A DNA stretch of 64,000 bases, taken from the IMG/VR virus record IMGVR_UViG_2914923772_000011, positions 1-64,000 of that record; one strand, written 5' to 3'. Positions 3,563 through 57,744 of this stretch are shown here, piece by piece (position 1 is the stretch's first letter; every line of letters starts with the position of its first letter). This stretch comes from a virus (taxonomy: Duplodnaviria > Caudoviricetes). The notes under the pieces were generated by a model, which saw only the letters and a program-made list of their open reading frames with translations, was not told where the DNA came from and ran no database searches. The position numbers and the translations under genes are program-made.

Positions 3563-3576
3563 AGGAGGTGCGCCGG

Positions 3577-13940: not shown

Positions 13941-15173
13941 CTATTTTATTTTTTCGATTTCATCTTTCAACCACTCAAATTCTCTCTGGGTGTAAACCTT
14001 TTCGGTGATGTCAGAGATCTTGTGACCGACCATATATTTGATTGCGTACTCGTCAACGCCGTACTTCTTAGCCATCGTCACAAAATGTTTACGACCATCA
14101 TGCGGTCTATGCTCAGGGTTCAAATTCAATTCGTCTCGAATCATACCAAAGCCTTTTTGGTATCGAGCATAAGTAAGTGCAGTGTTTTTGCTACGAGCAT
14201 TCGAATTAACATAGTTGAGCAGGTACAGACTTCCAAGTTCCTGAGCCTCTTTATATTTTCGCTCAACCAAATGACGAATCTTCGAGTGAATTGGAACCAC
14301 ACGATCTGTACCGGCATCTGTTTTGATACCGCCTCGGAAAGTCCAGTTTTCCAAATCCACATTCTTTAATTCCAGCAAACCAAGTTCCTGGGGTCGCCAA
14401 CCAGAATAGCACTGAATGAGCAGGACATCTACAAGCATTTTATCATCAGCGTGTTTCCAAAGCAAGTCCATCTCTTCGTCCGTAAAAGGAATATGCTCAT
14501 TCTTAACTGTGACGATTTCTTTGATGGTTTCCTCACTGAGGTTAAAAGTTCGCGAATAGTTCCGGTCAACAAGCTCGTACTCCAAGGCATAATCCAACAT
14601 CAAGTTAAACAAAGACTTGATTTGGTTCTTCATGGATGCACTTGGTGTCTTCTCTTCGCCTCGAACCTTCGATATGCCTTCGTCCATACAACCTTTTACA
14701 TGACGAGCGCGGACATCTTTGACTCGCATATCATATACGGCCGAGCAATACCCCCATGCTGAAGCTACCGAACGAGTGCTTTTAACTGTCTTCTCGTATT
14801 CGGCAAGCCATTTCTCGTAAAGTTCCCTCATGGTGATAGATGGTTCGAGGTCGTAAGGGTTCTTATTGTACTCGACGAGAGCAGCATATGCCTCGTTGTA
14901 TGTTGGAAAATAGGACTCCGGTTTAAGAGGCTTGCAGATAGGTCGTCCGTTCGAATCCTTTCCGACACTTATCATAGCTCTAAATGGGTTGCGGAGATTC
15001 CGATTCTTGATCTCACTGATCTGCCCGAAACCGTTTGGCAGTCTACGGCGTTTATTGTTCTTATTTCGAGGTTTTCTTGGTTTTATATTTGGTTGCAATG
15101 GAAATCCGCAGTGAGGACAAGAAATTGCTTTGTCACTTACTTGTAGTTCACATTCAGGGCATTTTATCAGCAT
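13941..15173 (-). CDS. int: Tyrosine integrase with N-terminal zinc ribbon
   Basis: CPEC...CPHC N-terminus; catalytic R (SGWRPQE), K (IKTDAG), HDGR, VGH, VY; GGAAGGTG RBS before ATG 15173. Confidence 0.92.
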   Translation of the reverse strand: MLIKCPECELQVSDKAISCPHCGFPLQPNIKPRKPRNKNNKRRRLPNGFGQISEIKNRNLRNPFRAMISVGKDSNGRPICKPLKPESYFPTYNEAYAALVEYNKNPYDLEPSITMRELYEKWLAEYEKTVKSTRSVASAWGYCSAVYDMRVKDVRARHVKGCMDEGISKVRGEEKTPSASMKNQIKSLFNLMLDYALEYELVDRNYSRTFNLSEETIKEIVTVKNEHIPFTDEEMDLLWKHADDKMLVDVLLIQCYSGWRPQELGLLELKNVDLENWTFRGGIKTDAGTDRVVPIHSKIRHLVERKYKEAQELGSLYLLNYVNSNARSKNTALTYARYQKGFGMIRDELNLNPEHRPHDGRKHFVTMAKKYGVDEYAIKYMVGHKISDITEKVYTQREFEWLKDEIEKIK

Positions 15174-15207
15174 TATTATCACCTTCCCCATTGATTTGCT
15201 ATTAGTA

Positions 15208-15246
15208 ATCATATATCATAAGTGTAGGAATGTCAACTCCTACACT
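15208..15246 (-). promoter_or_regulatory. SigmaA promoter for integrase with operator-like inverted repeat around -35
   Basis: Minus strand TTGACA (15236-15231), 17 nt, TATGAT (15213-15208); AGTGTAGGA-N8-TCCTACACT palindrome at 15221-15246. Confidence 0.75.
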
Positions 15247-16310: not shown

Positions 16311-16513
16311 TGAAGATTGTAGATATTGCAGTAAAAAAAGTCTATCGTTTCAACTGCCCGAATTGCCAGAGTAGGCTTGAGGCCGACAGCAGTGAGCTGA
16401 CAGACATCGGAGGCAAAGTAAGCAAGTTTTATTGCCCCGTATGCCGTAAAGACCGATATATAACTTGGTCTGACTTACGGAAAAAGATCGTCTACGAGGG
16501 TTCGCAGGAATAA
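16310..16513 (+). CDS. Small zinc-ribbon protein
   Basis: CPNC...CPVC. Confidence 0.7.
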   Translation: MKIVDIAVKKVYRFNCPNCQSRLEADSSELTDIGGKVSKFYCPVCRKDRYITWSDLRKKIVYEGSQE

Positions 16514-16530
16514 CAAGCTCCTTTATGAAA
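16503..16530 (+). promoter_or_regulatory. Phage motif copy 1 (putative phage-RNAP promoter)
   Basis: CGC AGGAATAACA AGCTCCT TTATG AAA. Confidence 0.6.
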
Positions 16531-16543
16531 GGAGTGATATTTC

Positions 16544-16771
16544 ATGGAAAAAGAAAACAAAGTTTTAACCTATGCAACAGCATTTGCTGTAGTATCAGGA
16601 GGCATCTTGATGTTGTCTATTGTACCTGCTGCACTCGGCATTAGACAAACGCAAAAAGCGCAGGCGTTTAATCTGATGGCAGATGGATATAGAGCAATGT
16701 CACTTGCTAAAACTTACGATGCAAAAGCAGCAGCGGAAGCGTTAAAACTGACAATTAAAGAAGTGATGTAA
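16544..16771 (+). CDS. Small membrane protein
   Basis: 75 aa with one hydrophobic segment; GAAAGGAG RBS. Confidence 0.7.
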   Translation: MEKENKVLTYATAFAVVSGGILMLSIVPAALGIRQTQKAQAFNLMADGYRAMSLAKTYDAKAAAEALKLTIKEVM

Positions 16772-16786
16772 CTGCTGAAGGATATT

Positions 16787-16805
16787 GAGCCGCTAACAAC
16801 GGCTC
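16787..16805 (+). terminator. Conserved-loop hairpin terminator
   Basis: GAGCCG-CTAACAA-CGGCTC followed by T-rich tract. Confidence 0.7.
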
Positions 16806-16930
16806 TTTATCTTTTCTTTTTCTAACTTAGATTAAAACCCGGACGAAGGTGACAGGTATCTGTGTTAAATTAGTATCTGGAAAAATCCCCGGGTTGAAAT
16901 TTTTGAAAAACAATTTGAAAGGAGATCGTT

Positions 16931-17146
16931 ATGGAAGTCGTTTATGTAGTTGTCGGAATCTTGATTGGGTATGTCGTCTCATCTATCATTCGCCGAAAGC
17001 ATCCTGTCGGTTTTCTGCGTATTGACAAGTCTGATCCGGACGGACCCTATCTTTTTCTTGAACTGAAAAAGAACGTTAATGAAATTATAGCTCAAAGAAC
17101 TGTCCTATTAGAAGTGAAGCGTGAAGACTTTATTCCGCACAAATAA
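16931..17146 (+). CDS. Small protein with N-terminal membrane anchor
   Basis: 71 aa, MEVVYVVVGILIGYVVSSII; strong RBS. Confidence 0.7.
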   Translation: MEVVYVVVGILIGYVVSSIIRRKHPVGFLRIDKSDPDGPYLFLELKKNVNEIIAQRTVLLEVKREDFIPHK

Positions 17147-17163
17147 CACTTCCTTTTATGGAA
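17136..17163 (+). promoter_or_regulatory. Phage motif copy 2
   Basis: CGC ACAAATAACA CTTCCTT TTATG GAA. Confidence 0.6.
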
Positions 17164-17191
17164 CCCTATTAAAACGAAAGGAGAAACGAAT

Positions 17192-17584
17192 ATGGGTGAA
17201 GAAAACAGAAGTTTGTTGGAAGAGGAGATCAAAGCCGAAATTAAGCGCTTGGGATCTCTCGAATCCGGAAGTCAGGAGCATACCACAGCAGTGGATAGTT
17301 TGACGAAGCTGTACAAACTGAAGCTCGAAGAGGATAAGAATGCCTATGAGCGTCTGGACAAGATCGAGAACCGTGAAATCGATCAGGAGTCTAAGACGGC
17401 TCAAATGGCAGAGTCTGTCAAAGATCGATACTTCAGATTTGGTATGGCTGCCGCTGAGCTGGTGCTGCCGTTGATGTTCTACGGCGTTTGGATGAGACGA
17501 GGTTTCAAGTTCGAACAGGACGGAACTTTCACCTCCCAGACATTCAGAGGTTTATTCAGTCGATTCAGACCGACTAAGAAATAA
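17192..17584 (+). CDS. Coiled-coil protein with C-terminal hydrophobic segment
   Basis: 130 aa; GAAAGGAGAAA RBS. Confidence 0.75.
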   Translation: MGEENRSLLEEEIKAEIKRLGSLESGSQEHTTAVDSLTKLYKLKLEEDKNAYERLDKIENREIDQESKTAQMAESVKDRYFRFGMAAAELVLPLMFYGVWMRRGFKFEQDGTFTSQTFRGLFSRFRPTKK

Positions 17585-17598
17585 ACCGGTTCCAAAAG

Positions 17599-17631
17599 CG
17601 GAGAGTTCGTGTATACAACACGTTCTCTTCG
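17599..17631 (+). terminator. Hairpin terminator (loop TATACAA)
   Basis: Imperfect 13-bp stem then TTTTT. Confidence 0.5.
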
Positions 17632-17642
17632 TTTTTCTCCTG

Positions 17643-17670
17643 CTCGAAATTTACAAGGGCTATTGTGAGA
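17643..17670 (+). promoter_or_regulatory. Phage motif copy 3 (variant)
   Basis: CTC GAAATTTACA AGGGCTA TTGTG AGA. Confidence 0.5.
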
Positions 17671-17693
17671 GATGTAAAAGTGCTTTTTATCTC

Positions 17694-17738
17694 TTGATAA
17701 AATACTGATGGCCGCTATACTTAATAGTGCCACACAAT
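17694..17738 (+). promoter_or_regulatory. SigmaA-like promoter with GCCACACAAT downstream element
   Basis: TTGATA (17694), 16 nt, TATACT (17716), GCCACACAAT at 17729. Confidence 0.5.
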
Positions 17739-17757
17739 ATCAAGGAGGTAATTTGCA

Positions 17758-17973
17758 ATGAGCTTTTTTAACGACGCGCAGAGAGACGGTTTACTTACTG
17801 GACGGTATATTTGCAGTGAATGCGGAGGACTTATGGAATTTGAAGACGAGTGGGAAGATACTTTAGTATGTCCTGCTTGCGGTCACTCCGTCGATTTAGA
17901 GCATTATGGTATGGAGAACGATGAAGAATATGATGCTCTATATCCGACCAGAGATCAAATCTGCGACGACTAA
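17758..17973 (+). CDS. Small acidic zinc-ribbon protein
   Basis: CSEC...CPAC; AAGGAGG RBS. Confidence 0.75.
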   Translation: MSFFNDAQRDGLLTGRYICSECGGLMEFEDEWEDTLVCPACGHSVDLEHYGMENDEEYDALYPTRDQICDD

Positions 17974-17997
17974 TTAAGACTATTAGCAAAGGGGAAG

Positions 17998-18015
17998 GAG
18001 TCCTGACGAGGGCTC
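17998..18015 (+). terminator. Conserved-loop hairpin terminator
   Basis: GAGTCC-TGACGA-GGGCTC then T-rich tract. Confidence 0.65.
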
Positions 18016-18044
18016 TTTCTCTTTTCTTTTTATAGGTGATTGAT

Positions 18045-18404
18045 ATGCGATACCACTTTGACAAACCGGAAATTTACTTGTCCTTGTATGGCGAGCGTTA
18101 TATTTGCGAGCATCCGGTTTACAATAGCTGCACTCTCTACAGAATTGAGAAAAGAGGTTTAGCAGTAATTCAGCAACGATTTGACTCCGAGACGAAAAGT
18201 ACATGGTGGAGCGAAGTTGACCCTTGGATTACTGACGCTTTATATTTGCACCCTGATTTTCGAGAATACTTTGAAATGAGGGCTGGGGTGTGTACGGACG
18301 GAATATACCCTACTGTAACGGTTCGCCAAATTATGTGGGCATTAAAAATGAAACCAATTCAGAAAGAACGATGGGAAACCGTATTCGATAGACGGGATAT
18401 CTAA
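18045..18404 (+). CDS. Hypothetical phage protein
   Basis: ~119 aa, AGGTGA RBS. Confidence 0.7.
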   Translation: MRYHFDKPEIYLSLYGERYICEHPVYNSCTLYRIEKRGLAVIQQRFDSETKSTWWSEVDPWITDALYLHPDFREYFEMRAGVCTDGIYPTVTVRQIMWALKMKPIQKERWETVFDRRDI

Positions 18405-18405
18405 G

Positions 18406-18433
18406 CGCAAAAAACGCATCTCCCTTTATGAAA
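18406..18433 (+). promoter_or_regulatory. Phage motif copy 4
   Basis: CGC AAAAAACGCA TCTCCCT TTATG AAA. Confidence 0.55.
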
Positions 18434-18463
18434 ACCATTGAATTTTGAAGGGAGACATGGATT

Positions 18464-18613
18464 ATGAAAACACTAAAGAACAAGCTATATGCTGTAGTAT
18501 TACTTATTTGTGGGTACTTACCGGTACTTATTGACAAAGATGCAACAGCGTTAGTATTCTTTGCGTTTATCGCAATACCGTTGTTCTTTGCAAAAGAAAA
18601 CTGGATTTATTGA
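18464..18613 (+). CDS. 49-aa two-TM membrane protein (not in ORF track)
   Basis: MKTLKNKLYAVVLLICGYLPVLIDKDATALVFFAFIAIPLFFAKENWIY; AGGGAG RBS; lies between motif and terminator. Confidence 0.65.
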   Translation: MKTLKNKLYAVVLLICGYLPVLIDKDATALVFFAFIAIPLFFAKENWIY

Positions 18614-18618
18614 GGATT

Positions 18619-18637
18619 GAGCCGCTAACAACGGCTC
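18619..18637 (+). terminator. Conserved-loop hairpin terminator
   Basis: GAGCCG-CTAACAA-CGGCTC, identical to 16787. Confidence 0.7.
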
Positions 18638-18646
18638 TTTTCTTTT

Positions 18647-18674
18647 CGCCAAAATTACAGCTCCTGTTATGGAA
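18647..18674 (+). promoter_or_regulatory. Phage motif copy 5
   Basis: CGC CAAAATTACA GCTCCTG TTATG GAA. Confidence 0.6.
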
Positions 18675-18705
18675 AACGATGCTATTTGAAAGGAGTAAAA
18701 GGAGC

Positions 18706-18921
18706 ATGGACGAAATGAAAATTGGTTCTAAATTCACTACGAGCATTATCTCGAAATTGGCGAGTTTGGCAATCCGAAAGAAATTTGGTTATGATGTAAA
18801 ACTGAATTTGAATGAGGTAAAAGCCACAGTCGTTGACGGAAAGACGCATGTTCATCTGGATATAGATGCCGATCTTGAGAAAGATGAACTTACTAAAATC
18901 CTGAAAAGTATTGGTTTGTAA
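18706..18921 (+). CDS. Hypothetical phage protein (71 aa)
   Basis: AAAGGAG RBS before ATG 18706. Confidence 0.7.
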   Translation: MDEMKIGSKFTTSIISKLASLAIRKKFGYDVKLNLNEVKATVVDGKTHVHLDIDADLEKDELTKILKSIGL

Positions 18922-18931
18922 AATCTGAAAG

Positions 18932-18950
18932 GAGCTGCTAACAACGGCTC
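18932..18950 (+). terminator. Conserved-loop hairpin terminator
   Basis: GAGCTG-CTAACAA-CGGCTC then TTTTCTTTT. Confidence 0.7.
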
Positions 18951-18963
18951 TTTTCTTTTGCCG

Positions 18964-18991
18964 CGCGAAATTTACAAGTCTTATTATGAGA
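18964..18991 (+). promoter_or_regulatory. Phage motif copy 6
   Basis: CGC GAAATTTACA AGTCTTA TTATG AGA. Confidence 0.6.
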
Positions 18992-19063
18992 GACGGGTTA
19001 GCTCAGTTGGTAGAGCGCCACACTTCCGTGGAGGTCGTCGGTTCGAATCCGATACAGTCTCTC
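18988..19063 (+). ncRNA. tRNA-like RNA with aberrant anticodon and acceptor arms
   Basis: Canonical D arm (TAGCTCAGTTGGTAGAGC) and T arm (GTCGG-TTCGAAT-CCGAT). Anticodon arm is only CCAC-ACTTCC-GTGG. Closing stem GAGAGAC/GTCTCTC; no CCA. Confidence 0.7.
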
Positions 19064-19097
19064 TTGCTTTTTATTTTCGCATGAAAGGAGAAAAGAC

Positions 19098-19418
19098 ATG
19101 AGCATCGATCAGCTTGATCTAATCTTGTATGACATGTACCGCATGGACGCTTGGCTGCCGCCTTTGTTTGGTAAATGGACGGAAGATTATAAAAAAGCGA
19201 GTTACTCACAATGGGCTGTCGACGAGCTCAGAGATTTTATCGCCGAACGGATTTACCCTCGAAAAGAAGGGTCTATTGATGAATTCTGTAAGCTCACGCA
19301 CGAATTCATGATGAAGACAGCTAAGTATGCGAGGGTGAATCCAAACACAAGTCTTATGTTCCGATCTGCCAGTGAAATGGCAGCGAACATTTTAGACCTT
19401 CTAAGGGCTATGGAATAA
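19098..19418 (+). CDS. Hypothetical phage protein
   Basis: 106 aa; GAAAGGAGAAAAGAC RBS. Confidence 0.75.
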   Translation: MSIDQLDLILYDMYRMDAWLPPLFGKWTEDYKKASYSQWAVDELRDFIAERIYPRKEGSIDEFCKLTHEFMMKTAKYARVNPNTSLMFRSASEMAANILDLLRAME

Positions 19419-19442
19419 CAAAAGCATGAAAGGAGAAAAGAC

Positions 19443-20267
19443 ATGAACAAAAACCAAGCAATTCAAAAGTTGCTGCATAAGTCAGGGCTTTGTATCAGGA
19501 AATACTCACCTGTTGCATTGTCTTGTGTAGCATCAGCCGGCGTGGTAGTCACGGCAATTGCAGCAGCCAAAGCGACCCCACGAGCAGTAGCGTTAGTTTA
19601 TGCAGACAGTCGCAAAAAGCATGATGGCGATCCATATGCGTACACCAAGAAAGAGGCGTTCATCGCTGCATGGAAATGTTATATTCCGGCAGTGGCATTT
19701 GGAGCTTCTACTATCGCTTGCATTATGGGTGCCAATGCCTTAAATCGACGCCAACAGGCAGCACTAACAAGTGCGTATGCTCTCGTCCAAAGTTCTTATA
19801 AGGAATATAAGGACAAGCTGAAAGAACTCTATGGAGAAGAAGCACATAATGCAATCATGGATTCCATCATCAAGGAAAAGTGCAAGGACATCAGCATCTC
19901 TGCTAATGGAGGTTGGTACGATTCTTCTCTTGACTTTGGCGAAGGCATGGAGCCTGAGGTTACTCGTACTTTCTACGATAGTTTTTCACAAAGATATTTT
20001 GTGTCAACAATCGAGAAAGTTATCCAGGCTGAGTACCATCTGAACCGCAATTTTATGTTCGCAGGGGTTATCCCACTTAATGACTTTTACGAGTTTCTTG
20101 GGCTTGAAAAGACGGAACTCGGAGATGCCGTAGGATGGTCAAGCTGTAATGGCGATATTTATTGGATCGACTTTAACCATCACCGACTCACTTTGGATGA
20201 CGGCATGGAGATATATGTTATTGACATGGTTTTTGAGCCTACAGCTGAGTGGATGGAAGATCTGTAA
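19443..20267 (+). CDS. DUF6353-like membrane-anchored protein, paralog 1
   Basis: KYSPVAL...TAIAAAKATP hydrophobic segment; C-terminal FYDSFSQRYF...LNDFYEFLGL...GW. Confidence 0.75.
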   Translation: MNKNQAIQKLLHKSGLCIRKYSPVALSCVASAGVVVTAIAAAKATPRAVALVYADSRKKHDGDPYAYTKKEAFIAAWKCYIPAVAFGASTIACIMGANALNRRQQAALTSAYALVQSSYKEYKDKLKELYGEEAHNAIMDSIIKEKCKDISISANGGWYDSSLDFGEGMEPEVTRTFYDSFSQRYFVSTIEKVIQAEYHLNRNFMFAGVIPLNDFYEFLGLEKTELGDAVGWSSCNGDIYWIDFNHHRLTLDDGMEIYVIDMVFEPTAEWMEDL

Positions 20268-20270
20268 GTT

Positions 20271-20298
20271 CGCAAAAAATACATTTCACTTTATGAAA
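20271..20298 (+). promoter_or_regulatory. Phage motif copy 7
   Basis: CGC AAAAAATACA TTTCACT TTATG AAA. Confidence 0.6.
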
Positions 20299-20319
20299 AC
20301 GAAAAGGAGGTTTCGCTTT

Positions 20320-20490
20320 ATGAATAATGCAAAATTGGTTAAAATCCTGGGTCTTGTCGCTACCGCAGTAGGTATGGGGGCTACGCTCCTCACTGACTGG
20401 GTGAACGAGAAGAAGATGGAAGAAAAAATTGATGAACGCATCAATGAGAAGCTTGCCGCACTTAGCGATGAAGAAGATGAGGAGTCCTAA
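20320..20490 (+). CDS. 56-aa membrane-anchored protein
   Basis: MNNAKLVKILGLVATAVGMGATLL...; AAGGAGG RBS. Confidence 0.7.
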   Translation: MNNAKLVKILGLVATAVGMGATLLTDWVNEKKMEEKIDERINEKLAALSDEEDEES

Positions 20491-20499
20491 CAAGGGCTC
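20482..20499 (+). terminator. Conserved-loop hairpin terminator (stop codon lies in loop)
   Basis: GAGTCC-TAACAA-GGGCTC then T-rich tract. Confidence 0.65.
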
Positions 20500-20510
20500 T
20501 TCTTCTTTAT

Positions 20511-20816
20511 TTGAACGATATGTGTGATGCAAGCACGGCTGTTTCGATCATCCAACGATATGTTGGTGAGCATCTGTTCAGCCCATCCTTCACATGGCCA
20601 AAGTATGAATTCAGAAAAAGGTCATATCAGCAATGGGCTGCATATGAAATCTGTGATCGAATCATGGACAAGCCTTTCGACGATCCAATCACCATCATCG
20701 AAAACTTCATGTTCGAGATGGCTATGTATGCTTGTTACGGCGAGGATGAGCAGCGTAGCTTTATATTTCAGAATGCGGTCGAAACAGCTGAAGAATTAAG
20801 TCTACTATTTGTTTAA
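20511..20816 (+). CDS. Hypothetical phage protein
   Basis: ~100-aa ORF filling the gap; weak RBS, start uncertain. Confidence 0.55.
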   Translation: MNDMCDASTAVSIIQRYVGEHLFSPSFTWPKYEFRKRSYQQWAAYEICDRIMDKPFDDPITIIENFMFEMAMYACYGEDEQRSFIFQNAVETAEELSLLFV

Positions 20817-20832
20817 CCGAAAGGAGAAAATC

Positions 20833-21594
20833 ATGCCTAAACAAAGTTTAGCAAGCATTGCCAAAGGTGTACGGACGGCAATGAAAAAACATAGTCCTGA
20901 AATTCTCACCGGTATCGGAATTGCCGGCATGATTACCACCACTGTTATGGCGGTAAAAGCAACCCCAAAAGCTCTGATTCTGCTTGAAGAGAAAAAAGAT
21001 GAGTTGGATACGGACAGACTTGAGCCGAAGGACATCATCAAGACAGCTTGGCCTTGTTATATTCCGGCGGCTGTCGTAGGCTCCATCTCTGTATTCTGCC
21101 TGATTGGGGCAAGCTCGACTAATCTTCGTCGAAATGCTGCGCTGGCAACGGCATATACCCTTTCGGAGTCGACTCTCAAAGAGTATCAGGAAAAAGTCGT
21201 TGAGACAATCGGTGAGAAAAAGGAACAGTCCATTCGAGACTCTGTGTCGAAAGACAAGATGGTTAAGAACCCTGTTCGAGAAATTATTCTCACCGAAAGC
21301 GGCGGGAACACAATCTGTTACGATGTCTTATCCGGACGATATTTCAAGTCTGACAGAGATAAGATTACCAGAGTCATGAATGAACTGAATCGGCAGATGC
21401 GTGACGAAATGTATGTCACACTAAACGATTTCTACTATGAACTCGGTTTAGACGGAACCAAGATGGGCGATATGCTCGGATGGAACATTGATAAGGGTTA
21501 CATTGACCTTGCTTTCTCGTCCCAGCTGGATGCAAATGGCACCCCTTGCCTGGTGATCGACTATCAGGTAGCACCAGTTTACGACTATCAGTAA
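20833..21594 (+). CDS. DUF6353-like protein, paralog 2
   Basis: KKHSPEILTGIGIAGMITTTVMAVKATPK; CYDVLSGRYFKS...LNDFYYELGL...GW. Confidence 0.8.
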   Translation: MPKQSLASIAKGVRTAMKKHSPEILTGIGIAGMITTTVMAVKATPKALILLEEKKDELDTDRLEPKDIIKTAWPCYIPAAVVGSISVFCLIGASSTNLRRNAALATAYTLSESTLKEYQEKVVETIGEKKEQSIRDSVSKDKMVKNPVREIILTESGGNTICYDVLSGRYFKSDRDKITRVMNELNRQMRDEMYVTLNDFYYELGLDGTKMGDMLGWNIDKGYIDLAFSSQLDANGTPCLVIDYQVAPVYDYQ

Positions 21595-21602
21595 ATTTGC
21601 CG

Positions 21603-21630
21603 CGCGAAATTTACAACTTATTTAATGGAA
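21603..21630 (+). promoter_or_regulatory. Phage motif copy 8
   Basis: CGC GAAATTTACA ACTTATT TAATG GAA. Confidence 0.55.
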
Positions 21631-21671
21631 GAACATTCCACAATTTCACACATTTGAAAGGAGATTTCACA

Positions 21672-29700: not shown

Positions 29701-30944
29701 TGTTGGATATTGCCTCTATGCATCCGAGCAGTATTGTAGCAGAAGAACTCTTCGGACCGGAATACACAAAGCGATTCGACGAAATTCTTCAGGCTCGTAT
29801 TGCTATCAAGCATAAGGATTTTGACAAAGCAAAGAAGATGCTGGGTGGTGCATTGGCTAAGTACCTGACTGACGAGAATGCTGCGGCTGACTTGGCACAG
29901 GCTCTGAAAATTGCAATTAACTCCGTGTACGGTCTGACCTCAGCCGGATTTGAAAACCCGTTCCGGGATAACCGTAACAAGGATAACATCGTTGCGAAGC
30001 GTGGAGCTCTGTTTATGGTCAATCTCAAGCACGCTGTTCAGAGTCAGGGCTTTACTGTGGCACACATCAAAACCGACTCCATCAAGATTCCGGATGCAAC
30101 GCCTGAGATCATCAAGTTTGTAACTGAATACGGCAAGCTGTATGGGTACAACTTTGAACACGAAGCAACCTACGACCGTATGTGTCTGGTAAACGACGCA
30201 GTTTATATTGCTCGTTATGCTACAGTCGAGAAGTGCTGTGACCTGTACGGGAAAAAGTACATCGACTCTGCAAAGGATATTTGCAAGGAGAACAAGAAGC
30301 ATCCGTATGCGTGGACAGCAACCGGTACACAGTTCCAGATTCCTTATGTTTTCAAGACGCTCTTCAGCAAGGAGAACATCGAGTTCGAGGATATGTGCGA
30401 GACGAAATCTGTAACTTCCTCGCTCTATCTTGACATGAACGAGGCTCTGCCGGATGTAAGTGCCCTTGAAGCGGAAAGAGATAAACTGTGGAAACAGATT
30501 ACCGATTCTAAACGCATGACTGAGCCGATGTCCACTGAATGTAAGCGTGTCGAAGAATTAACGGACGAAATTGCCAAGGGTCATAACTACCACTTTATCG
30601 GAAAAGTTGGTCAGTTCTGCCCGATTAAGCCTGGCTGCGGAGGCGGCATCCTGCTTCGTGAAACAGAAAACAAGAAGACTGGTGAAAAGGGTTACGCTGC
30701 TGCTACGGGTTCTAAGGGCTTCCGCTGGCTTGAGTCCGAGATGGTCAAGCAGCTGGACAAACAGGGTGACATTGACCGTGGTTATTACAACAACATGGTA
30801 GACGAAGCAGTCAAGTCTCTGTCTGTTTATGGTGACTTCGAACGCTTTGCGGCGGACGAACCGTATGTTTCGGATAACACACCACCGTGGTTCGGAGCTG
30901 GCGAGCCTCATGAGGACGATACTACGCCGTTTGATGTGAGGTAA
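26793..30944 (+). CDS. Fused SF3 helicase - AEP primase - 3'-5' exonuclease - family B DNA polymerase
   Basis: Walker A GAAGTGKS; prim-pol VIDFD...SKSGQGIHLHY; exo FYDVE, GFN..RYD, YCDND; PolB DIASMHPS, KIAINSVYG, HIKTDS. Confidence 0.88.
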   Translation: MIDFLMISTRSTKRGVIEIYPKFIIKKSSDLMIRGGDFYAIWLEDRGLWSTDEQDALQLIDRELDKYAEENRKNFDSSIKVLHMWDSESGMIDSWHKYCQKQMRDSFHMLDEKLIFSNTPTNKKDYASKRLNYPLEEGATDAWNKLMSTIYSKEERTKIEWAIGSIVCGESKKLQKFMVLYGAAGTGKSTVLNIVQQLFEGYYSVFDAKALGSSSNSFALEAFKTNPLVAIQHDGDLSRIEDNTRLNSLVSHELMTVNEKFKSTYANRFKCFLFMGTNKPVKITDAKSGLIRRLIDVSPSGNKLSPKEYKAVTKQIEFELGAIAYHCQEVYLENPGRYDDYIPVTMLGASNDFYNFIIDSYHVFKKEDGTTLKASWEMYKTYCDEAKVTFPFSQRIFKEELKNYFRDYKERFNLDDGTRVRSYYIGFRTEKFEDKALTEQDEPEHKLIEFLKQKSVFDRECADCPAQYASAKETPTSKWDEVSTKLSNLTTSRLHYVKVPENHIVIDFDIQDKDGNKSYELNLKEASKWPPTYAELSKSGQGIHLHYIYAGDVSKLSRVYDDHIEVKVFTGKSSLRRKLTKCNDLPIATINSGLPLKGEKQVINFEGVKSEKGLRTQIKRNLNKEYHPATKPSIDFIYKILEDAYASGLNYDVTDMRNAVLAFAASSTHQADYCIKLVNKMQFKSADQSAGAKNDDAKLVFYDVEVFPNLFLVNWKIEGEGKPVVRMINPTPTEIEELMRFRLVGFNCRRYDNHILYARLMGYTNEQLYNLSTKIINGSANCFFGEAYNVSYTDVYDFSSKKQSLKKFEIELGIHHQELGLPWDKPVPEELWTKVAEYCDNDVIATEATFNARKADFTARQILADVAGMSVNDTTNSLTTRIIFGNNRKPQDQFNYRFMGDESQIFDPNADLPFTMGLEDYDEFTQFDKNHRPIFPGYTFEGGKSVYRGEEVGEGGYVYSEPGMYSNIALLDIASMHPSSIVAEELFGPEYTKRFDEILQARIAIKHKDFDKAKKMLGGALAKYLTDENAAADLAQALKIAINSVYGLTSAGFENPFRDNRNKDNIVAKRGALFMVNLKHAVQSQGFTVAHIKTDSIKIPDATPEIIKFVTEYGKLYGYNFEHEATYDRMCLVNDAVYIARYATVEKCCDLYGKKYIDSAKDICKENKKHPYAWTATGTQFQIPYVFKTLFSKENIEFEDMCETKSVTSSLYLDMNEALPDVSALEAERDKLWKQITDSKRMTEPMSTECKRVEELTDEIAKGHNYHFIGKVGQFCPIKPGCGGGILLRETENKKTGEKGYAAATGSKGFRWLESEMVKQLDKQGDIDRGYYNNMVDEAVKSLSVYGDFERFAADEPYVSDNTPPWFGAGEPHEDDTTPFDVR

Positions 30945-36726: not shown

Positions 36727-36754
36727 CACGAAAAAAACACCCCCTATTATGAAA
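36727..36754 (+). promoter_or_regulatory. Phage motif copy 9
   Basis: CAC GAAAAAAACA CCCCCTA TTATG AAA. Confidence 0.55.
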
Positions 36755-36768
36755 GGAGGTAACGCACA

Positions 36769-41955: not shown

Positions 41956-41984
41956 GACCGAGATGCTTAAACGGTGTCTCGGTC
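41956..41984 (+). terminator. Rho-independent terminator
   Basis: GACCGAGATGC-TTAAACG-GTGTCTCGGTC then T8. Confidence 0.8.
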
Positions 41985-42008: not shown

Positions 42009-42036
42009 CGCGAAAAATACATTCTCTTTTATGAAG
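42009..42036 (+). promoter_or_regulatory. Phage motif copy 10, upstream of the nuclease-RNAP operon
   Basis: CGC GAAAAATACA TTCTCTT TTATG AAG. Confidence 0.6.
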
Positions 42037-42118
42037 AGAGGAGTAAAAAAGCTATTTTTAAGAATAGACATTCTCTTTTCAGTTTTGAAAAACTACATGA
42101 AAGGAGGCTCATTTGCTA

Positions 42119-42409
42119 ATGCTCGAAAGTCAATTTCAAGCGAAGCTCATTAAGGAGCTCAAGAAACTTTTTCCAGGTTGCATCGTGATGAAAAGCGACT
42201 CTGGATATTTGCAAGGCATTCCCGATCTGCTTATTTTGTTCAATGACAAATGGGCTGCTCTGGAATGTAAACAACACGCTGGTGCAAAAAAGCAACCAAA
42301 CCAAGAATATTATGTGGGTAAAATGGATGAGATGTCTTTCTCCAGATTCATTTGTCCCGAGAACAAGGAGGAAGTGCTGCATGATCTTCAACAATCATTC
42401 CAATCTTGA
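42119..42409 (+). CDS. VRR-NUC endonuclease
   Basis: ESQFQ...GIPDLL...ECK...QPNQ. Confidence 0.85.
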   Translation: MLESQFQAKLIKELKKLFPGCIVMKSDSGYLQGIPDLLILFNDKWAALECKQHAGAKKQPNQEYYVGKMDEMSFSRFICPENKEEVLHDLQQSFQS

Positions 42410-42938
42410 AGGGCAACACGCTTTTCTTGGTGCCAGCAAGTATCATTGGATTAACTATGACGAAACAAAAGTAGCTGATGCTTATTCAAAGTTTTTGGCC
42501 ACACAGCGAGGGACCGTTCTACATGACTTTGCATGTCAATGTATCACTTTGGGGCAAAAACTCCCCAAGTCACAGAAAACATTGAACATGTATGTCAATG
42601 ACGCAATTAGTTTTCGTATGGTGCCTGAACAGATTCTGTTCTATTCAGAAAATTGCTTTGGCACCGCCGATACGATTGTATTTCGGAATGGTACGCTTCG
42701 TATTCACGATTTGAAGACCGGTGTCGTTCCGGCGCACATGGAGCAGCTTGAAATATACGCTGCTCTTTTTTGTTTGGAATACAAGGTGAAACCATCGGAA
42801 ATCGAGATGGAACTTCGTCTGTATCAGAACAACGAAATTCTGTATCACACACCTACTGCCGAAGATATTGTTCCAATCATGGACAAGATTATTACTTTTG
42901 ACAAGGTTATTAGAAAAATCAGAGAACAGGAGGGTTAA
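42381..42938 (+). CDS. PD-(D/E)xK Cas4-like exonuclease
   Basis: GTVLH...FGTAD...DLKTG...QLEIY. Confidence 0.75.
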   Translation: MIFNNHSNLEGQHAFLGASKYHWINYDETKVADAYSKFLATQRGTVLHDFACQCITLGQKLPKSQKTLNMYVNDAISFRMVPEQILFYSENCFGTADTIVFRNGTLRIHDLKTGVVPAHMEQLEIYAALFCLEYKVKPSEIEMELRLYQNNEILYHTPTAEDIVPIMDKIITFDKVIRKIREQEG

Positions 42939-42941
42939 ACC

Positions 42942-45662
42942 ATGAGTCTCACGGATGATATTTTAATGCATTACGGTATGCCCAGAAGGTCTGGTCGTTA
43001 TCCTTGGGGTTCGGGTGATAACCCTTATCAGCACAGCGGTGATTTTCTTTCCCGTGTAGAGGAACTGAAAAAGTCCAATTTCACCTTTACCGATAAAGAT
43101 GGAAAAACTTACACAGGAGAAGTAGCCATTGCAAAATCTATGGGCTTGAGTACAACCCAATTTCGTACCCAGATGAGCCTTGCAAAGGATGAACGCCGTT
43201 CTGCTGATGTCGCTACGGCTAAGGCTCTTCGTGCTAAGGGTTATAGTTTGAATGAAATCGCTGATAAGATGGGCTTTGCTAACGATTCTTCGGTTCGCTC
43301 GCTTTTGAATGAGAGTTCCGAAGCTCGTATGAATCAGGCAAAGCAGACCGCTGAATTTCTGAAAAAACAGATTTCGGAAAAAGGCATGATCGATGTCGGA
43401 ACCGGAGTCGAAAGAGAGCTTGGTATTTCGAAAGAGAAAATGAACCAGGCTCTTTATATTTTGGAAATGGAAGGCTATCCCATCTATGGCGGCGGTGTCC
43501 CTCAGGTAACAAACCCGGGTAAGCAAACAAACATCAAGGTTCTCTGCCCTCCAGGAACAGAGCATAAAGAGATTTATAATTTCGAGAATGTCCATTCCGT
43601 CAGAGACTATGTGTCTCATGATGACGGCGAGACATTCGACAAGTTTGTCTATCCTAAAAGTATGGATTCAAGCCGCTTGAAAATCCGTTATGCGGAAGAT
43701 GGCGGTATTCAGAAAGATGGTGTCATTGAAATTCGTCGTGGTGTAGACGACTTATCTCTCGGTGATTCCCATTATGCTCAGGTTCGCATCTTGGTCGACG
43801 GCAATAGATATCTGAAAGGAATGGCTGTTTATTCTGATGATCTTCCTGATGGTGTGGATGTAATGTTCAACACCAATAAGAAAAAGGGCACTCCGACATC
43901 GGATGTTCTGAAGAAGGTAAAGGATGACCCCGATAATCCGTTTGGTTCCCTTATCAAAGCCGGTGGGCAGAGCTATTATATCGATGCTGATGGTAAACGA
44001 CAGCTCTCCCTTATCAATAAGCGTGCTGAAGAGGGCGATTGGGGTGAATGGGCGGATAAACTCCCCTCCCAGTTTCTTTCTAAACAGAGTTTGAGTCTTG
44101 TCAATAAACAGCTGAATTTGGCGGCATCTGATAAGATGGCTGAATTTGATGAAATCTGCTCACTGACAAATCCGACGGTCAAAAAATCATTACTGAAATC
44201 CTTTGCGGATGATTGTGACTCTGCTGCTGTGCACCTTCAGGCAGCTGCTCTTCCTCGTCAGAAATATCAGGTGATCCTACCTATCACTTCGATGAAAGAC
44301 AATGAAGTGTATGCCCCGAATTACAAGAATGGTGAAACAGTAGCTCTGGTTCGTTACCCACATGGCGGAACTTTTGAGATTCCTATCCTTACAGTGAATA
44401 ACAAGCAGGCAGAGGCTCGTCGAATCCTTGGCAACACACCTAAAGATGCAATCGGTATTAACAGTAAGGTTGCGGAACGGCTTTCAGGTGCTGACTTTGA
44501 TGGTGATACTGTCATGGTCATCCCCTGTAACTCTGGTAAAAGCAAGGTCAAGATTACTTCCACTCCTCCTCTGAAGGGACTTGAAGGATTTGACCCAAAA
44601 TTGGAGTATGGTGGAAAACCGGCTGGCACTTTCAAGCCTATGAAGAACACACAGAAAGAGATGGGTGTCATTTCTAATCTGATTACCGATATGACTTTGA
44701 AGGGTGCCACGCAGGATGAGCTTGCAAGAGCCGTTCGCCATAGCATGGTAGTTATCGATGCCGAAAAACACAAGCTGGACTATAAGCAAAGTGAGATCGA
44801 CAATGGCATCAGCTCTTTGAAAAAGAAGTATCAGGGCACGGTTGACGAAGACGGAAGATACCACGAGGGTGCTTCGACTCTGATTTCCCGTGCTAAATCG
44901 GAGACTTCTGTCACTAAGAGGCAAGGTAGTCCGAAAATCGATGAAAAGACAGGCGAATACATATGGAAAGATGTGGATGACCCTGTTTATGTCGATAAGC
45001 GAACTGGCAAGGTCAAAGAGCGTACTCAGCCCAGCACTAAGATGGCTGAGGCAAAGGACGCCTATACCCTGGTTTCCGAAGCTGATACCCCCGTGGAGCG
45101 TGCTTATGCTAACTATGCCAACAAAATGAAAGCCCTGGGCAACCAGGCTCGTCTTGAGATCCTCTCCACTGGGAAAGTACCCTACTCCGCCACTGCAAAA
45201 GAGGCCTATCAAGCTGAGGTCGATTCTCTGAATGCTAAGCTCAATGTAGCTCTGAAGAATGCACCCAGAGAAAGGCAGGCTCAGACTATGGCTAATGCGG
45301 TAGTGGCTGCTAAAAAGCAGGACAATCCGGATATGACAAAGGGCGAGCTCAAGAAAGCAAGCCAGCAGGCGCTTACTCAGGCTCGTGCCTCTGTTGGTGC
45401 AAAGCGAGAGACCATCAAGATTACAGATCGTGAATGGGAAGCAATTCAAGCTGGCGCTATTAGCGAGAATAAGCTTACCCAAATCATCGACAATGTGGAC
45501 ATTGACAGTCTTAGACAGCGTGCAACACCGAGAGCGACAACAACTCTCAGCACTGCAAAGCAGAATAAGATCGCTTCGATGAATGCTTCTGGTTACAGCA
45601 CATCGGAAATTGCTGAAGCTCTTGGCATTTCTACGAGCACAGTGTCCAATTACTTGAATTGA
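42942..45662 (+). CDS. Single-chain two-barrel (DPBB) RNA polymerase with fused HTH domains
   Basis: AQVR-x7-LKGM (cellular RdRP-type barrel motif), VRYPH (R471), GADFDGD (D518-D522); HTH-like segments near N-terminus and at C-terminus. Confidence 0.8.
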   Translation: MSLTDDILMHYGMPRRSGRYPWGSGDNPYQHSGDFLSRVEELKKSNFTFTDKDGKTYTGEVAIAKSMGLSTTQFRTQMSLAKDERRSADVATAKALRAKGYSLNEIADKMGFANDSSVRSLLNESSEARMNQAKQTAEFLKKQISEKGMIDVGTGVERELGISKEKMNQALYILEMEGYPIYGGGVPQVTNPGKQTNIKVLCPPGTEHKEIYNFENVHSVRDYVSHDDGETFDKFVYPKSMDSSRLKIRYAEDGGIQKDGVIEIRRGVDDLSLGDSHYAQVRILVDGNRYLKGMAVYSDDLPDGVDVMFNTNKKKGTPTSDVLKKVKDDPDNPFGSLIKAGGQSYYIDADGKRQLSLINKRAEEGDWGEWADKLPSQFLSKQSLSLVNKQLNLAASDKMAEFDEICSLTNPTVKKSLLKSFADDCDSAAVHLQAAALPRQKYQVILPITSMKDNEVYAPNYKNGETVALVRYPHGGTFEIPILTVNNKQAEARRILGNTPKDAIGINSKVAERLSGADFDGDTVMVIPCNSGKSKVKITSTPPLKGLEGFDPKLEYGGKPAGTFKPMKNTQKEMGVISNLITDMTLKGATQDELARAVRHSMVVIDAEKHKLDYKQSEIDNGISSLKKKYQGTVDEDGRYHEGASTLISRAKSETSVTKRQGSPKIDEKTGEYIWKDVDDPVYVDKRTGKVKERTQPSTKMAEAKDAYTLVSEADTPVERAYANYANKMKALGNQARLEILSTGKVPYSATAKEAYQAEVDSLNAKLNVALKNAPRERQAQTMANAVVAAKKQDNPDMTKGELKKASQQALTQARASVGAKRETIKITDREWEAIQAGAISENKLTQIIDNVDIDSLRQRATPRATTTLSTAKQNKIASMNASGYSTSEIAEALGISTSTVSNYLN

Positions 45663-47893: not shown

Positions 47894-48295
47894 ATGGATA
47901 ATACAACACTTGCCCATCACGGCATCATCGGCATGAAATGGGGAGTCCGGCGCTATCAGAATAAAGATGGCACTCGTACCGCAGCCGGAAAGAAAAGAGA
48001 AAGTTCTTCTAAGTCTGATGCTCCTGCTCACGAGGACTATGCTAAAGCTCATAACAGTAAGAGCGTTAAGTCTATGAGTGATGCAGAGCTTCGCAACCGA
48101 CTGAATCGTCTTCAGATGGAGAAACAGTATAGTCAATTGTCTTCGACTGATGTGAATCGTGGAAAGGAATATGTATCGAAAACTCTAAAAGTCGCCGGAA
48201 CAATTGCAACCGCTACTTCGACCGCCTTAACCATTTACAATAACTATGGCAAGATCAAAGAAATTGTAAACGGTATGGCTAAGAAGGCTGGCTAA
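47894..48295 (+). CDS. HHG..G.KWGVRR-motif protein 1 (DUF7211-like)
   Basis: LAHHGIIGMKWGVRRYQNKDGT. Confidence 0.75.
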   Translation: MDNTTLAHHGIIGMKWGVRRYQNKDGTRTAAGKKRESSSKSDAPAHEDYAKAHNSKSVKSMSDAELRNRLNRLQMEKQYSQLSSTDVNRGKEYVSKTLKVAGTIATATSTALTIYNNYGKIKEIVNGMAKKAG

Positions 48296-56474: not shown

Positions 56475-56798
56475 ATGCCTATCAGTTTTTTGACTACAGC
56501 ACTGTTGATCGTATCCGTCATCACGAATCTGACAGTGGAGGGCATTAAGAAGCTGCTTGACGGAACGAAGGTCAAGTATTCTTCTAACGTTCTTGCGGCA
56601 GTTTTGTCCGTCCTGATCGCCTGTGCTGTTAGCGTGATTTACCTTATTATGACTGACACGATCTTTACTATGAAGATTGGGGTTGAGATCGTCGTTCTGA
56701 TGTATCTGGGCTTCCTGATCTCTACGGTTGGTTATGACAAGGTTATTCAGATGCTGAAACAGATCCAGAGCGTGAAGGAGGAAACGAAAAATGAGTAA
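56475..56798 (+). CDS. Holin candidate (three TM)
   Basis: Three hydrophobic segments, overlaps endolysin start. Confidence 0.65.
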   Translation: MPISFLTTALLIVSVITNLTVEGIKKLLDGTKVKYSSNVLAAVLSVLIACAVSVIYLIMTDTIFTMKIGVEIVVLMYLGFLISTVGYDKVIQMLKQIQSVKEETKNE

Positions 56799-57744
56799 CA
56801 GTCCTCTGGTATCTTATACCAAGTTAAGCCCTAATCATTCCGGGCAGAGAACCCATGTCGTTGACCGTATCACGCCTCATTGTGTGGTCGGTCAGTGCTC
56901 TGTAGAGACTTTGGGTAATATTTTTGCTCCGACTTCCCGACAGGCTTCCTGTCAGTATGGTATCGGCGTGGATGGTCGAGTGGGCATGTATGTGGAAGAA
57001 AAGAACCGTTCCTGGTGTTCTTCCTCTAATGCGAATGACCAGCGTGCGATTACAATCGAGTGTGCCAGCGATGCCACACATCCTTATGCATTCAACGACA
57101 CTGTATATGCTAAACTGATCGAGCTTTGCACAGACATTTGCAAGCGTTACGGAAAAACAAAGCTACTCTGGTTCGGCGATAAGACGAAGACTCTGAACTA
57201 TGAGCCGGCTTCCAATGAAATGGTTCTGACCGTACATCGTTGGTTCGCCAACAAGAGTTGCCCTGGTGACTGGATGTATGCTCGAATGGGAGATCTTGCG
57301 TCCAAAGTTACGGCTAAGCTTGGAGGCTCTGCTGGCGGAACTGAGAAGCCTGCCGATAATCAGGTGCTTTATCGGGTGCAGACAGGAGCTTTCAGCAACA
57401 AGGCGAATGCAGATGCAATGCTTCAGAAGGTGAAAGCCGCCGGTTTCGATACCTACATGGTTAAGGTCGATAACCTTTACAAGATTCAGGTCGGCGCATT
57501 CAGCAAGAAAGCAAATGCTGACGCTATGGCTGCAAAGCTGAAAGCTGCTGGTTTTGACACCTATATAACAACCAAAAGCGGGACGGCAGTCTCTGCATCT
57601 TCTGCGAAGAAAAGCACTGACCAGATCGCTCGTGAAGTAATTCAGGGGCTGTGGGGTAACGGTGTGGACAGGACTAATCGGCTGAAGGCAGCTGGTTACA
57701 ATCCTTCCGCAATACAGAATCGGGTGAATCAGCTTCTTAAATAA
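56791..57744 (+). CDS. Endolysin: amidase_2 + 2x SPOR + CW_7
   Basis: ITPHCVVG, ITIECA, HRWF..KSCPG; YRVQTGAF and YKIQVGAF repeats; IAREVIQGLWGNG..R..RL. Confidence 0.9.
   Translation: MSNSPLVSYTKLSPNHSGQRTHVVDRITPHCVVGQCSVETLGNIFAPTSRQASCQYGIGVDGRVGMYVEEKNRSWCSSSNANDQRAITIECASDATHPYAFNDTVYAKLIELCTDICKRYGKTKLLWFGDKTKTLNYEPASNEMVLTVHRWFANKSCPGDWMYARMGDLASKVTAKLGGSAGGTEKPADNQVLYRVQTGAFSNKANADAMLQKVKAAGFDTYMVKVDNLYKIQVGAFSKKANADAMAAKLKAAGFDTYITTKSGTAVSASSAKKSTDQIAREVIQGLWGNGVDRTNRLKAAGYNPSAIQNRVNQLLK

Follow-up and report, generated by a model that had tools for sequence, protein, structure and literature searches.

Known systems and the locus under study

Among the single-chain RNA polymerases (RNAPs) built on two double-psi beta-barrels (DPBBs), YonO is the best-studied phage example. 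It is a proven DNA-dependent RNAP that transcribes late genes (PMC5467207), and how it finds its promoters is still unknown. The family of P23-45 gp64, the closest phage structural relative of the protein discussed here, has likewise been proven to be a DNA-dependent RNAP (bioRxiv 10.1101/2022.12.01.518664). Another such group was defined by sequence comparison. Ruprich-Robert and Thuriaux placed Lactococcus phage 1706 at the head of one of five "YonO-like" families, with eight invariant active-site residues (PMC2919709). Koert et al. described the same protein family as the signature gene of a supercluster of actinophages and Lactococcus and Faecalibacterium phages, with an HHpred match to PF05183 (95.7%), a DxDGD loop, and helix-turn-helix domains (HTHs) at both ends (bioRxiv 10.1101/842583). 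Here we describe a member of this family from a stretch of 64,000 nucleotides, positions 1 to 64,000 of the IMG/VR provirus record IMGVR_UViG_2914923772_000011 (Caudoviricetes), the whole of which is called the window below. The gene is the following:

42942..45662, + strand: single-chain two-barrel RNA polymerase gene of the PHROG 4291 family (open reading frame [ORF], phrog_4291 match, AlphaFold model, and fold matches)

We put at roughly 0.65 the probability that this HTH-fused two-barrel enzyme is a DNA-dependent transcriptase that acts independently of sigma factors and initiates at promoters of about 30 nt that are the phage's own. At the protein level this is a rediscovery of a predicted family, one that is uncharacterized and lends itself unusually well to testing. 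As early as 2010, and again in 2021, the family was predicted to be an RNA-dependent RNA polymerase (RdRP)/YonO-like polymerase with terminal HTHs, and all published work on it is sequence prediction. Neither the fold evidence nor the associated promoter motif presented below appears in the accessible papers on the family, and the accessible literature contains no description of the motif.

Conserved motifs and family membership

The gene is an open frame of 906 codons with an ATG start. A preliminary description of this DNA, made from the letters alone, had quoted a protein of this length with several polymerase-like motifs, and both the frame and every quoted string were recovered in the translation: AQVR at residues 279-282, LKGM at 291-294, VRYPH at 470-474, and GADFDGD at 516-522, which supplies D518, D520, and D522. 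One detail required correction, the spacer between AQVR and LKGM being eight residues rather than the seven given. The DxDGD string is a signature of two-barrel polymerases, and the R-x-P motif (the equivalents of Rpb1 R446/P448) is a feature of the superfamily defined in the same work (PMC2919709).

44487..44507, + strand: GADFDGD, predicted metal-binding loop, residues 516-522 (D518, D520, G521, and D522 invariant in 78 sequences)

Conservation was assessed in an alignment of 78 homologues that are 47-62% identical to the query. Q280, R282, K292, G293, and M294 are invariant in it, as are R471, P473, H474, D518, D520, G521, and D522. Because they are invariant across homologues of such divergence, the quoted motifs are not chance matches. 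The same alignment offers D259, E263, and D270, at least 90% conserved, as candidates for a fourth acidic residue (the equivalent of Rpb2 D837), while the invariant R282 and K292 are candidate counterparts of the two basic residues K979/K987 of Rpb2 in the beta-like barrel.

The protein matches the phrog_4291 profile over its full length (residues 4-906 against profile positions 8-906 of 909; 1373 bits), and a search of 1.84 billion cluster representatives retrieved 1008 relatives (clusters at 50% identity) with E <= 1e-30. PHROGs labels phrog_4291 as "RNA-dependent RNA polymerase," a label that is also used in GenBank. The Pfam RdRP family (PF05183) scored below its gathering threshold (14.8 versus 23.8 bits; E 0.012), and over residues 509-612 only. 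Sequence searches of the PDB with the protein and then with the family profile retrieved HTH proteins only and no polymerase. The kinship to QDE-1, RDR2, and gp62 is visible at the fold level only.

The two-barrel core

An AlphaFold2 model built on the 78-sequence alignment reached a mean predicted local distance difference test score (pLDDT) of 89 and a predicted template modeling score (pTM) of 0.82. In a Foldseek search of the PDB with this model, QDE-1 ranked first (E 2e-8), and the matches also included the nonvirion RNAP of Thermus phages (P74-26 gp62/P23-45 gp64; E 4e-6) and RDR2 (E 2e-5); P23-45 gp96, crAss gp66, and cellular beta-prime subunits occupied lower ranks. VIA, a second structural aligner that is independent of Foldseek and the source of the Z scores given here, placed RDR2 at Z 15.4 (361 residues aligned; model residues 236-743), QDE-1 at Z 14.2 (372 residues), and P74-26 gp62 at Z 11.3 (348 residues). 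The largest subunits of cellular and viral RNAPs followed at Z 8.6-9.8 over roughly residues 431-726, and isolated DPBB domains matched residues 439-542 at Z 8.5-9.3. The two barrels were placed as follows:

43641..44057, + strand: first (beta-like) double-psi beta-barrel with QVR-x9-KGM, residues 234-372 (invariant residues; within the QDE-1/RDR2 alignment)
44247..44576, + strand: second (beta-prime-like) double-psi beta-barrel with RYPH and the catalytic loop, residues 436-545 (invariant R471/P473/H474; DPBB matches)

The first barrel was also folded separately as residues 228-375 (pLDDT 91). Its best matches are mostly DPBB folds, at low scores (Z <= 4.0; Foldseek E 0.03), and include, within the same limit of Z <= 4.0, the first barrels of RDR2 (515-619), gp62 (93-188), and QDE-1 (677-787). 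Thus, in the model, the second barrel and the core as a whole are well supported, while the first barrel on its own is consistent but weak. The presence of two DPBBs, on which the preliminary description had staked its prediction, is borne out by the model, which aligns to RDR2, QDE-1, and gp62 across both barrels. Its proposed kin held in part: QDE-1 and the largest subunits of RNAPs were matched, whereas the similarity to YonO is marginal and hhalign gave no match. Taken together, the modeled fold supports a predicted single-polypeptide RNA polymerase of the two-double-psi-barrel superfamily, of a QDE-1/RdRP-like branch, with a core spanning about residues 234-745.

Fused DNA-binding modules

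On both sides of this core the protein carries predicted DNA-binding modules:

43116..43307, + strand: two tandem HTH-like units, residues 59-122 (59-78 and 95-122; helices 59-66, 71-98, 103-110, and 115-121 in the model)
43332..43562, + strand: GntR-type winged HTH, residues 131-207 (nine chains of the GntR family or with similar winged HTHs)
45537..45656, + strand: C-terminal HTH of the sigma-region-4/LuxR/HTH_38 type, residues 866-905 (five Pfam HTH families; helices 871-882, 887-894, and 898-905)

The C-terminal module exceeds the Pfam gathering scores of several families over residues 869-905, namely HTH_38 (34.6 against 27), GerE (30.1 against 23.5), HTH_23 (29.0 against 24.6), Sigma70_r4_2 (26.9 against 25.7), and HTH_7 (25.8 against 23.8). 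The families matched here are the only ones above threshold in the entire 906-residue protein. The N-terminal HTH region is below the Pfam cutoffs; there, structural alignment matched the LsrR HTH at Z 6.4 on residues 82-131, and weak profile matches pointed to lambda-CI-type HTHs and the CAP-repeat. Residues 131-207 matched nine winged-HTH chains at Z 6.4-7.3 (60-67 aligned residues; root mean square deviation 1.8-2.6). HTH-like segments had previously been suggested on the N-terminal side (95-122) and at the C-terminal end (882-905); both were located and are supported by Pfam or by the model. The modeled modules outnumber those listed earlier, comprising two HTH-like units, a winged HTH, and a C-terminal HTH, and the consensus of the 78-homologue alignment retains all of them.

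A promoter-like motif in the window

The DNA itself furnishes a second line of evidence. A motif of about 30 nt, with the consensus CGCGAAAWWTACA-N5-CTWTTATGARAG, occurs in ten copies in the window, which were collected from the repeat families D2, D3, and D9 and by a position weight matrix (PWM) scan. All ten lie on the + (coding) strand ahead of genes, often after a terminator hairpin:

16503..21632, + strand: eight early-region motif copies, starting at 16503, 17136, 17643, 18406, 18647, 18964, 20271, and 21603 (repeats, PWM scan)
36727..36756, + strand: motif copy ahead of the NrdD/NrdG block (repeats, PWM scan)
42009..42038, + strand: motif copy heading the exonuclease-RNAP transcription unit, after a strong terminator at 41956-41984

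The last of these lies about 0.9 kb ahead of the polymerase gene; no copy follows it, and the unit it heads would extend to the packaging and structural genes. The stretch from 40.2 to 48.4 kb contains no second candidate motif and no above-chance sigma70 site. The copy at 18964 adjoins a tRNA at 18992-19060 (+), which scores 39.6 bits with Rfam and was missed by ARAGORN. The tRNA begins where this motif copy ends; therefore, RNA must start at the 3' end of the motif.

The motif is not sigmaA-like: only 5 nt separate its TTTACA box from the TATAAT-like box, and a -35 element at 16-18 nt is lacking. The window provides an internal contrast, in that the integrase gene has directly upstream a canonical, near-consensus sigma70-type promoter (TTGACA-17-TATGAT; 15236-15208, - strand), as against the noncanonical ten-copy motif.

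13941..15212, - strand: tyrosine integrase (phrog_1, E 1e-40)

As a separate observation, the terminator hairpins at 16787-16805, 18619-18637, 18932-18950, and 20479-20502 have a common loop, CTAACAA, on differing stems. The early region is enriched in terminator-like sites, with 17 found against 6.6 expected.

The motif in relatives and in host genomes

At 42 bacterial loci whose polymerase proteins are 46-100% identical to the query, most have a match to the motif about 0.93 kb upstream of the gene, and two lack a match on the + strand. Homologous motifs are also present in phages of other hosts: TTTTACATACCCTATAATGA in Lactococcus phage P092 (9 copies, two of them directly before a tRNA-like sequence), TCGCA-N3-TTTACACGGCCTATAATGAGACCCCTAC in Streptomyces phage Bing (10 copies), and TCGCA-N4-TTACACGTCCTATAATGAGACCCC in Gordonia phage Crocheter (8 copies). 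In these three phages the copies are always on the + strand and in the nonstructural arm. With a looser pattern, FP_oengus has one copy and MT835495 two, upstream of the polymerase gene, k-mer counts having given strings of ribosome-binding site and ATG only. The motif thus co-occurs with the polymerase gene in phages ranging from 33% to about 60% G+C and spanning two phyla.

Host chromosomes give the complementary picture. In Clostridium leptum DSM 753 (3.3 Mb), eight of the eight pattern matches fall within one 26-kb prophage stretch, and a reversed-pattern control gave none; in Hungatella hathewayi (6.9 Mb), the prophage holds six of the seven, and the control gave one. The motif is a promoter-like signal of the phage, not of the host. 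The HTH-bearing polymerase would be its obvious reader, on the basis of co-occurrence, which is not proof.

Proposed mechanism and alternatives

In the mechanism that we favor, the beta-like barrel (QVR...KGM) and the beta-prime-like barrel (RYPH, GADFDGD) would jointly form the active site, and the fused HTH-like units, the winged HTH, and the C-terminal HTH would recognize promoters. The polymerase would transcribe the phage DNA without host sigma, from the motifs of about 30 nt. Placed after terminators, these promoters would serve the early cassettes, the nucleotide-reductase block, and the block that runs from the exonuclease and RNAP genes through the packaging and structural genes. RNA synthesis, the use of DNA as the template, the reading of the motif by the polymerase rather than by another factor, and its reading via the HTHs are steps that we infer.

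Several points weigh against this proposal. The accessible literature contains no biochemistry or structural study of any member of the family. Structurally the protein is closest to QDE-1 and RDR2, which are RNA-dependent or dual enzymes; the Pfam RdRP score is under its threshold, and the model does not reveal template preference. Switch-2 and funnel elements have been described as marks of DNA-dependent enzymes (PMC2919709). Moreover, the first barrel on its own resembles DPBB folds weakly (Z <= 4.0). The link between motif and polymerase is one of co-occurrence only, in relatives that have many other genes in common, and the actinophage and lactococcal versions of the motif contain a perfect TATAAT that is possibly usable by the host RNAP. 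The polymerase gene is itself behind a terminator and one of its own putative promoters, and because of this the first enzyme molecules are left without a source. Possible sources are read-through of host-driven transcription past the terminator, weak use of the -10-like core by the host enzyme, or delivery in the virion.

These points give room first to the idea that the protein is an active, YonO-like two-barrel RNAP that would transcribe only the late (packaging and structural) operon, from some other start, with the ten-copy motif being read by the host RNAP, aided by the -10-like TATAAT/TTATG core of the motif and perhaps by a phage activator. The gene stands where the replication and packaging modules adjoin, which suits such a role, as does the perfect TATAAT in the motif of P092, Bing, and Crocheter, and the question of how the first enzyme molecules arise dissolves. 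We nevertheless regard it as unlikely. The -10-like element is poor in the clostridial phages (TTTTATGA), the TTTACA box is only 5 nt off and no -35 element stands at 16-18 nt, and some 20 further positions of the motif are conserved across phyla with differing host promoters. The 40.2-48.4 kb region offers no other start, with neither a second motif nor an above-chance sigma70 site, and in the host chromosomes the motif is confined to the prophage in C. leptum (8/8) and nearly so in H. hathewayi (6/7).

Distinctly unlikely, in our view, is an RNA-templated or priming enzyme, either an RdRP making double-stranded or antisense RNA or a primase-like protein for replication, whose HTHs would target it to DNA sites. 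The top fold matches are indeed RNA-dependent polymerases, the family is listed in databases as "RNA-dependent RNA polymerase," the gene is the last of the replication module and neighbors a Cas4-like exonuclease, and QDE-1 makes RNA from single-stranded DNA (PMC9508822). On the other hand, the phage already has a primase-polymerase fusion. Transcription is a better fit to the several sequence-specific DNA-binding modules, to the ten oriented motifs close to genes, and to the tRNA that directly follows one of these motifs, and all characterized phage enzymes of this fold are DNA-dependent transcriptases. Finally, a multi-HTH transcription regulator on a catalytically dead polymerase-like scaffold, suggested by the HTHs as the sole Pfam matches above threshold and by most GenBank records saying only "helix-turn-helix DNA-binding domain protein," is highly improbable, as dead enzymes lose catalytic residues, whereas the three aspartates, RxPH, and the K/R of the first barrel stay unchanged across 78 sequences in which about half of the residues differ.

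Genome setting and distribution

The phage had been described as temperate, and this stands: an integrase gene is present, and prophages with the polymerase gene occur in isolate genomes. From the integrase the gene order runs through small early genes, a primase-PolA fusion, a single-strand annealing protein, a helicase, NrdD, and NrdG to the Cas4-like exonuclease and the polymerase gene, where the replication and packaging modules meet, and onward through tRNA-Leu, HNH, large terminase, portal, protease/capsid, and tail genes. The exonuclease is a conserved partner, and the exonuclease-polymerase pair is annotated likewise in Streptomyces, Gordonia, Arthrobacter, and Faecalibacterium phages.

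42243..42938, + strand: Cas4-like exonuclease, conserved partner immediately upstream of the polymerase gene (phrog_3953)

An identical polymerase protein is encoded by a prophage of C. leptum DSM 753, with 95.3% nucleotide identity over 22.7 kb, and further chromosomal copies are found in isolates of H. hathewayi, Cuneatibacter, Enterocloster, and Lachnospira. The gene is carried by 251 phage records (Arthrobacter 95, Gordonia 55, Streptomyces 54, and Lactococcus 13, plus Faecalibacterium and gut viromes), with protein identity to the query of 40-57% over 99% of the length. Most of the matches listed place it no more than a few hundred bases from a record end, and where annotation exists the exonuclease gene precedes it. 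Comparison of the first 12 kb of the window with its last 14 kb, for a circular wrap, found no repeat.

Some neighboring genes merit mention in their own right. The first 13.9 kb of the record, upstream of the integrase, contain an ORF of 3009 residues (3568-12597, +). The primase-polymerase fusion (26793-30944, +; 1383 residues) is shared by relatives; it is matched along its whole length by a phage DNA polymerase family and, in the N-terminal third, by primase families. An endolysin/amidase gene (56791-57744, +) lies between the major tail protein and tape-measure genes, which is the usual place of tail chaperone genes.

The N-terminal peptide and possible virion delivery

Ahead of the HTH-like units, the polymerase begins with a conserved peptide, which can be compared with an ORF farther downstream:

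42942..43040, + strand: N-terminal peptide, residues 1-33 (LxHYG...SGRYPWGSG), conserved but disordered (conservation and pLDDT)
47894..48295, + strand: 133-residue ORF upstream of the large terminase, opening with the DUF7211 motif LAHHGIIGMKWGVRR (Pfam PF23847, E 1.3e-9)

Residues 8-25 of the peptide are among the best-conserved parts of the family, with G12, S17, G18, R19, G23, and G25 invariant, at a pLDDT of 45-55. The N-terminal motif of DUF7211 reads LxH[HY]GxxGMKWGVRR, and the related loci and phages contain 49 distinct ORF N-termini of this type, most of which are encoded downstream of the polymerase gene or, where the phage genome is complete, in its left arm. A single related phage can have as many as five such ORFs, mostly in or near the head-gene region. 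The polymerase peptide shares the LxHYG part with this motif. The likeness is weak, with a Pfam E of 0.02-0.12 in three of six polymerase N-termini; hhalign of the polymerase N-terminus against DUF7211 gave 88.5% over 13 columns, a figure that is partly circular in that the set was picked by a pattern containing the H-Y/H-G core.

The LxHYG part shared by the polymerase and the DUF7211 ORFs may be a common capsid-targeting or processing signal. Extending this, the polymerase might be packed into the capsid and injected, with its N-terminal peptide acting as a DUF7211-related capsid-targeting signal, so that one enzyme would run the whole phage program with one class of promoters; this would hold for temperate and lytic siphoviruses of Firmicutes and Actinobacteria alike. 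We hold this extension to be tentative and on balance doubtful; the accessible literature contains no report of the polymerase being packaged in virions of the relatives.

Significance and comparison with known systems

Single-chain two-barrel RNAPs are rare windows on the possible origin of the cellular transcription machine. With over 1000 clusters at 50% identity, and with members in 251 sequenced phages and in prophages of cultured gut Clostridia, the family considered here is large; it has its own DNA-binding modules and a defined candidate promoter of 30 nt that is conserved in two phyla. Sigma-free promoter recognition by a two-barrel enzyme can therefore be tested directly with one protein and one short DNA, and the family has tractable hosts in Lactococcus, Streptomyces, Gordonia, and Arthrobacter. 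A possible yield is a compact orthogonal transcription system for Gram-positive bacteria.

The nearest described system is the signature protein of the supercluster (FP_oengus AUV56548.1), with which the present protein has in common the DxDGD loop, the terminal HTHs, and the upstream Cas4-like exonuclease. Its assignment to PHROG 4291 and to the supercluster rests on the full-length profile match together with the terminal HTHs and the exonuclease. The settings differ: this copy resides in a temperate clostridial prophage, whereas, of the five isolated relatives examined, FP_oengus has the gene mid-record and the others have it at one end of a linear record.

QDE-1 of Neurospora (PDB 7y7p) and plant RDR2 (both PF05183) are the best structural matches over both barrels and the connecting helices (Z 14-15; about 360-370 residues). 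Like the present protein, they are single-chain enzymes with the same barrel order and a DxDGD loop. However, they are only 12-14% identical to it and serve silencing in eukaryotes, acting on RNA or single-stranded DNA, without HTH modules and without promoters.

Among the RNAPs of other phages, the virion RNAPs (crAss-like phi14:2 gp66, N4, and P23-45 gp96) start infection from phage-specific promoters. Of these, gp66 and gp96 are two-barrel enzymes that match our protein at Z ~7. The virion RNAPs are large virion proteins, while packaging of the present enzyme is a hypothesis prompted by the N-terminal peptide and by where the gene lies. P23-45 gp64/P74-26 gp62 (PDB 8f72, 8f5m) is a single-chain two-barrel RNAP of a phage; it is DNA-dependent and recognizes a DNA motif specific to the phage. 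It differs in its size of about 590 residues, with no fused HTH domains and no detectable sequence similarity, and P23-45/P74-26 has a separate virion RNAP besides this nonvirion enzyme.

YonO of the SPbeta prophage of Bacillus (phrog_8308) is also a single-chain two-barrel RNAP of a temperate Firmicutes phage, of similar size (839 residues). The two proteins share a 79-residue local match around the catalytic barrel (residues 449-527; 21.5 bits; E 1.4e-4). YonO itself matches phrog_8308 over its full length, and hhalign of our family profile against the YonO sequence gave no match. Filing the present protein under the YonO family was rejected, there being a local match only and no full-length homology. 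On these comparisons, YonO appears to be a functional analogue rather than a close relative. YonO has no described HTH modules, whereas in the predicted enzyme described here such modules are fused to the polymerase core.

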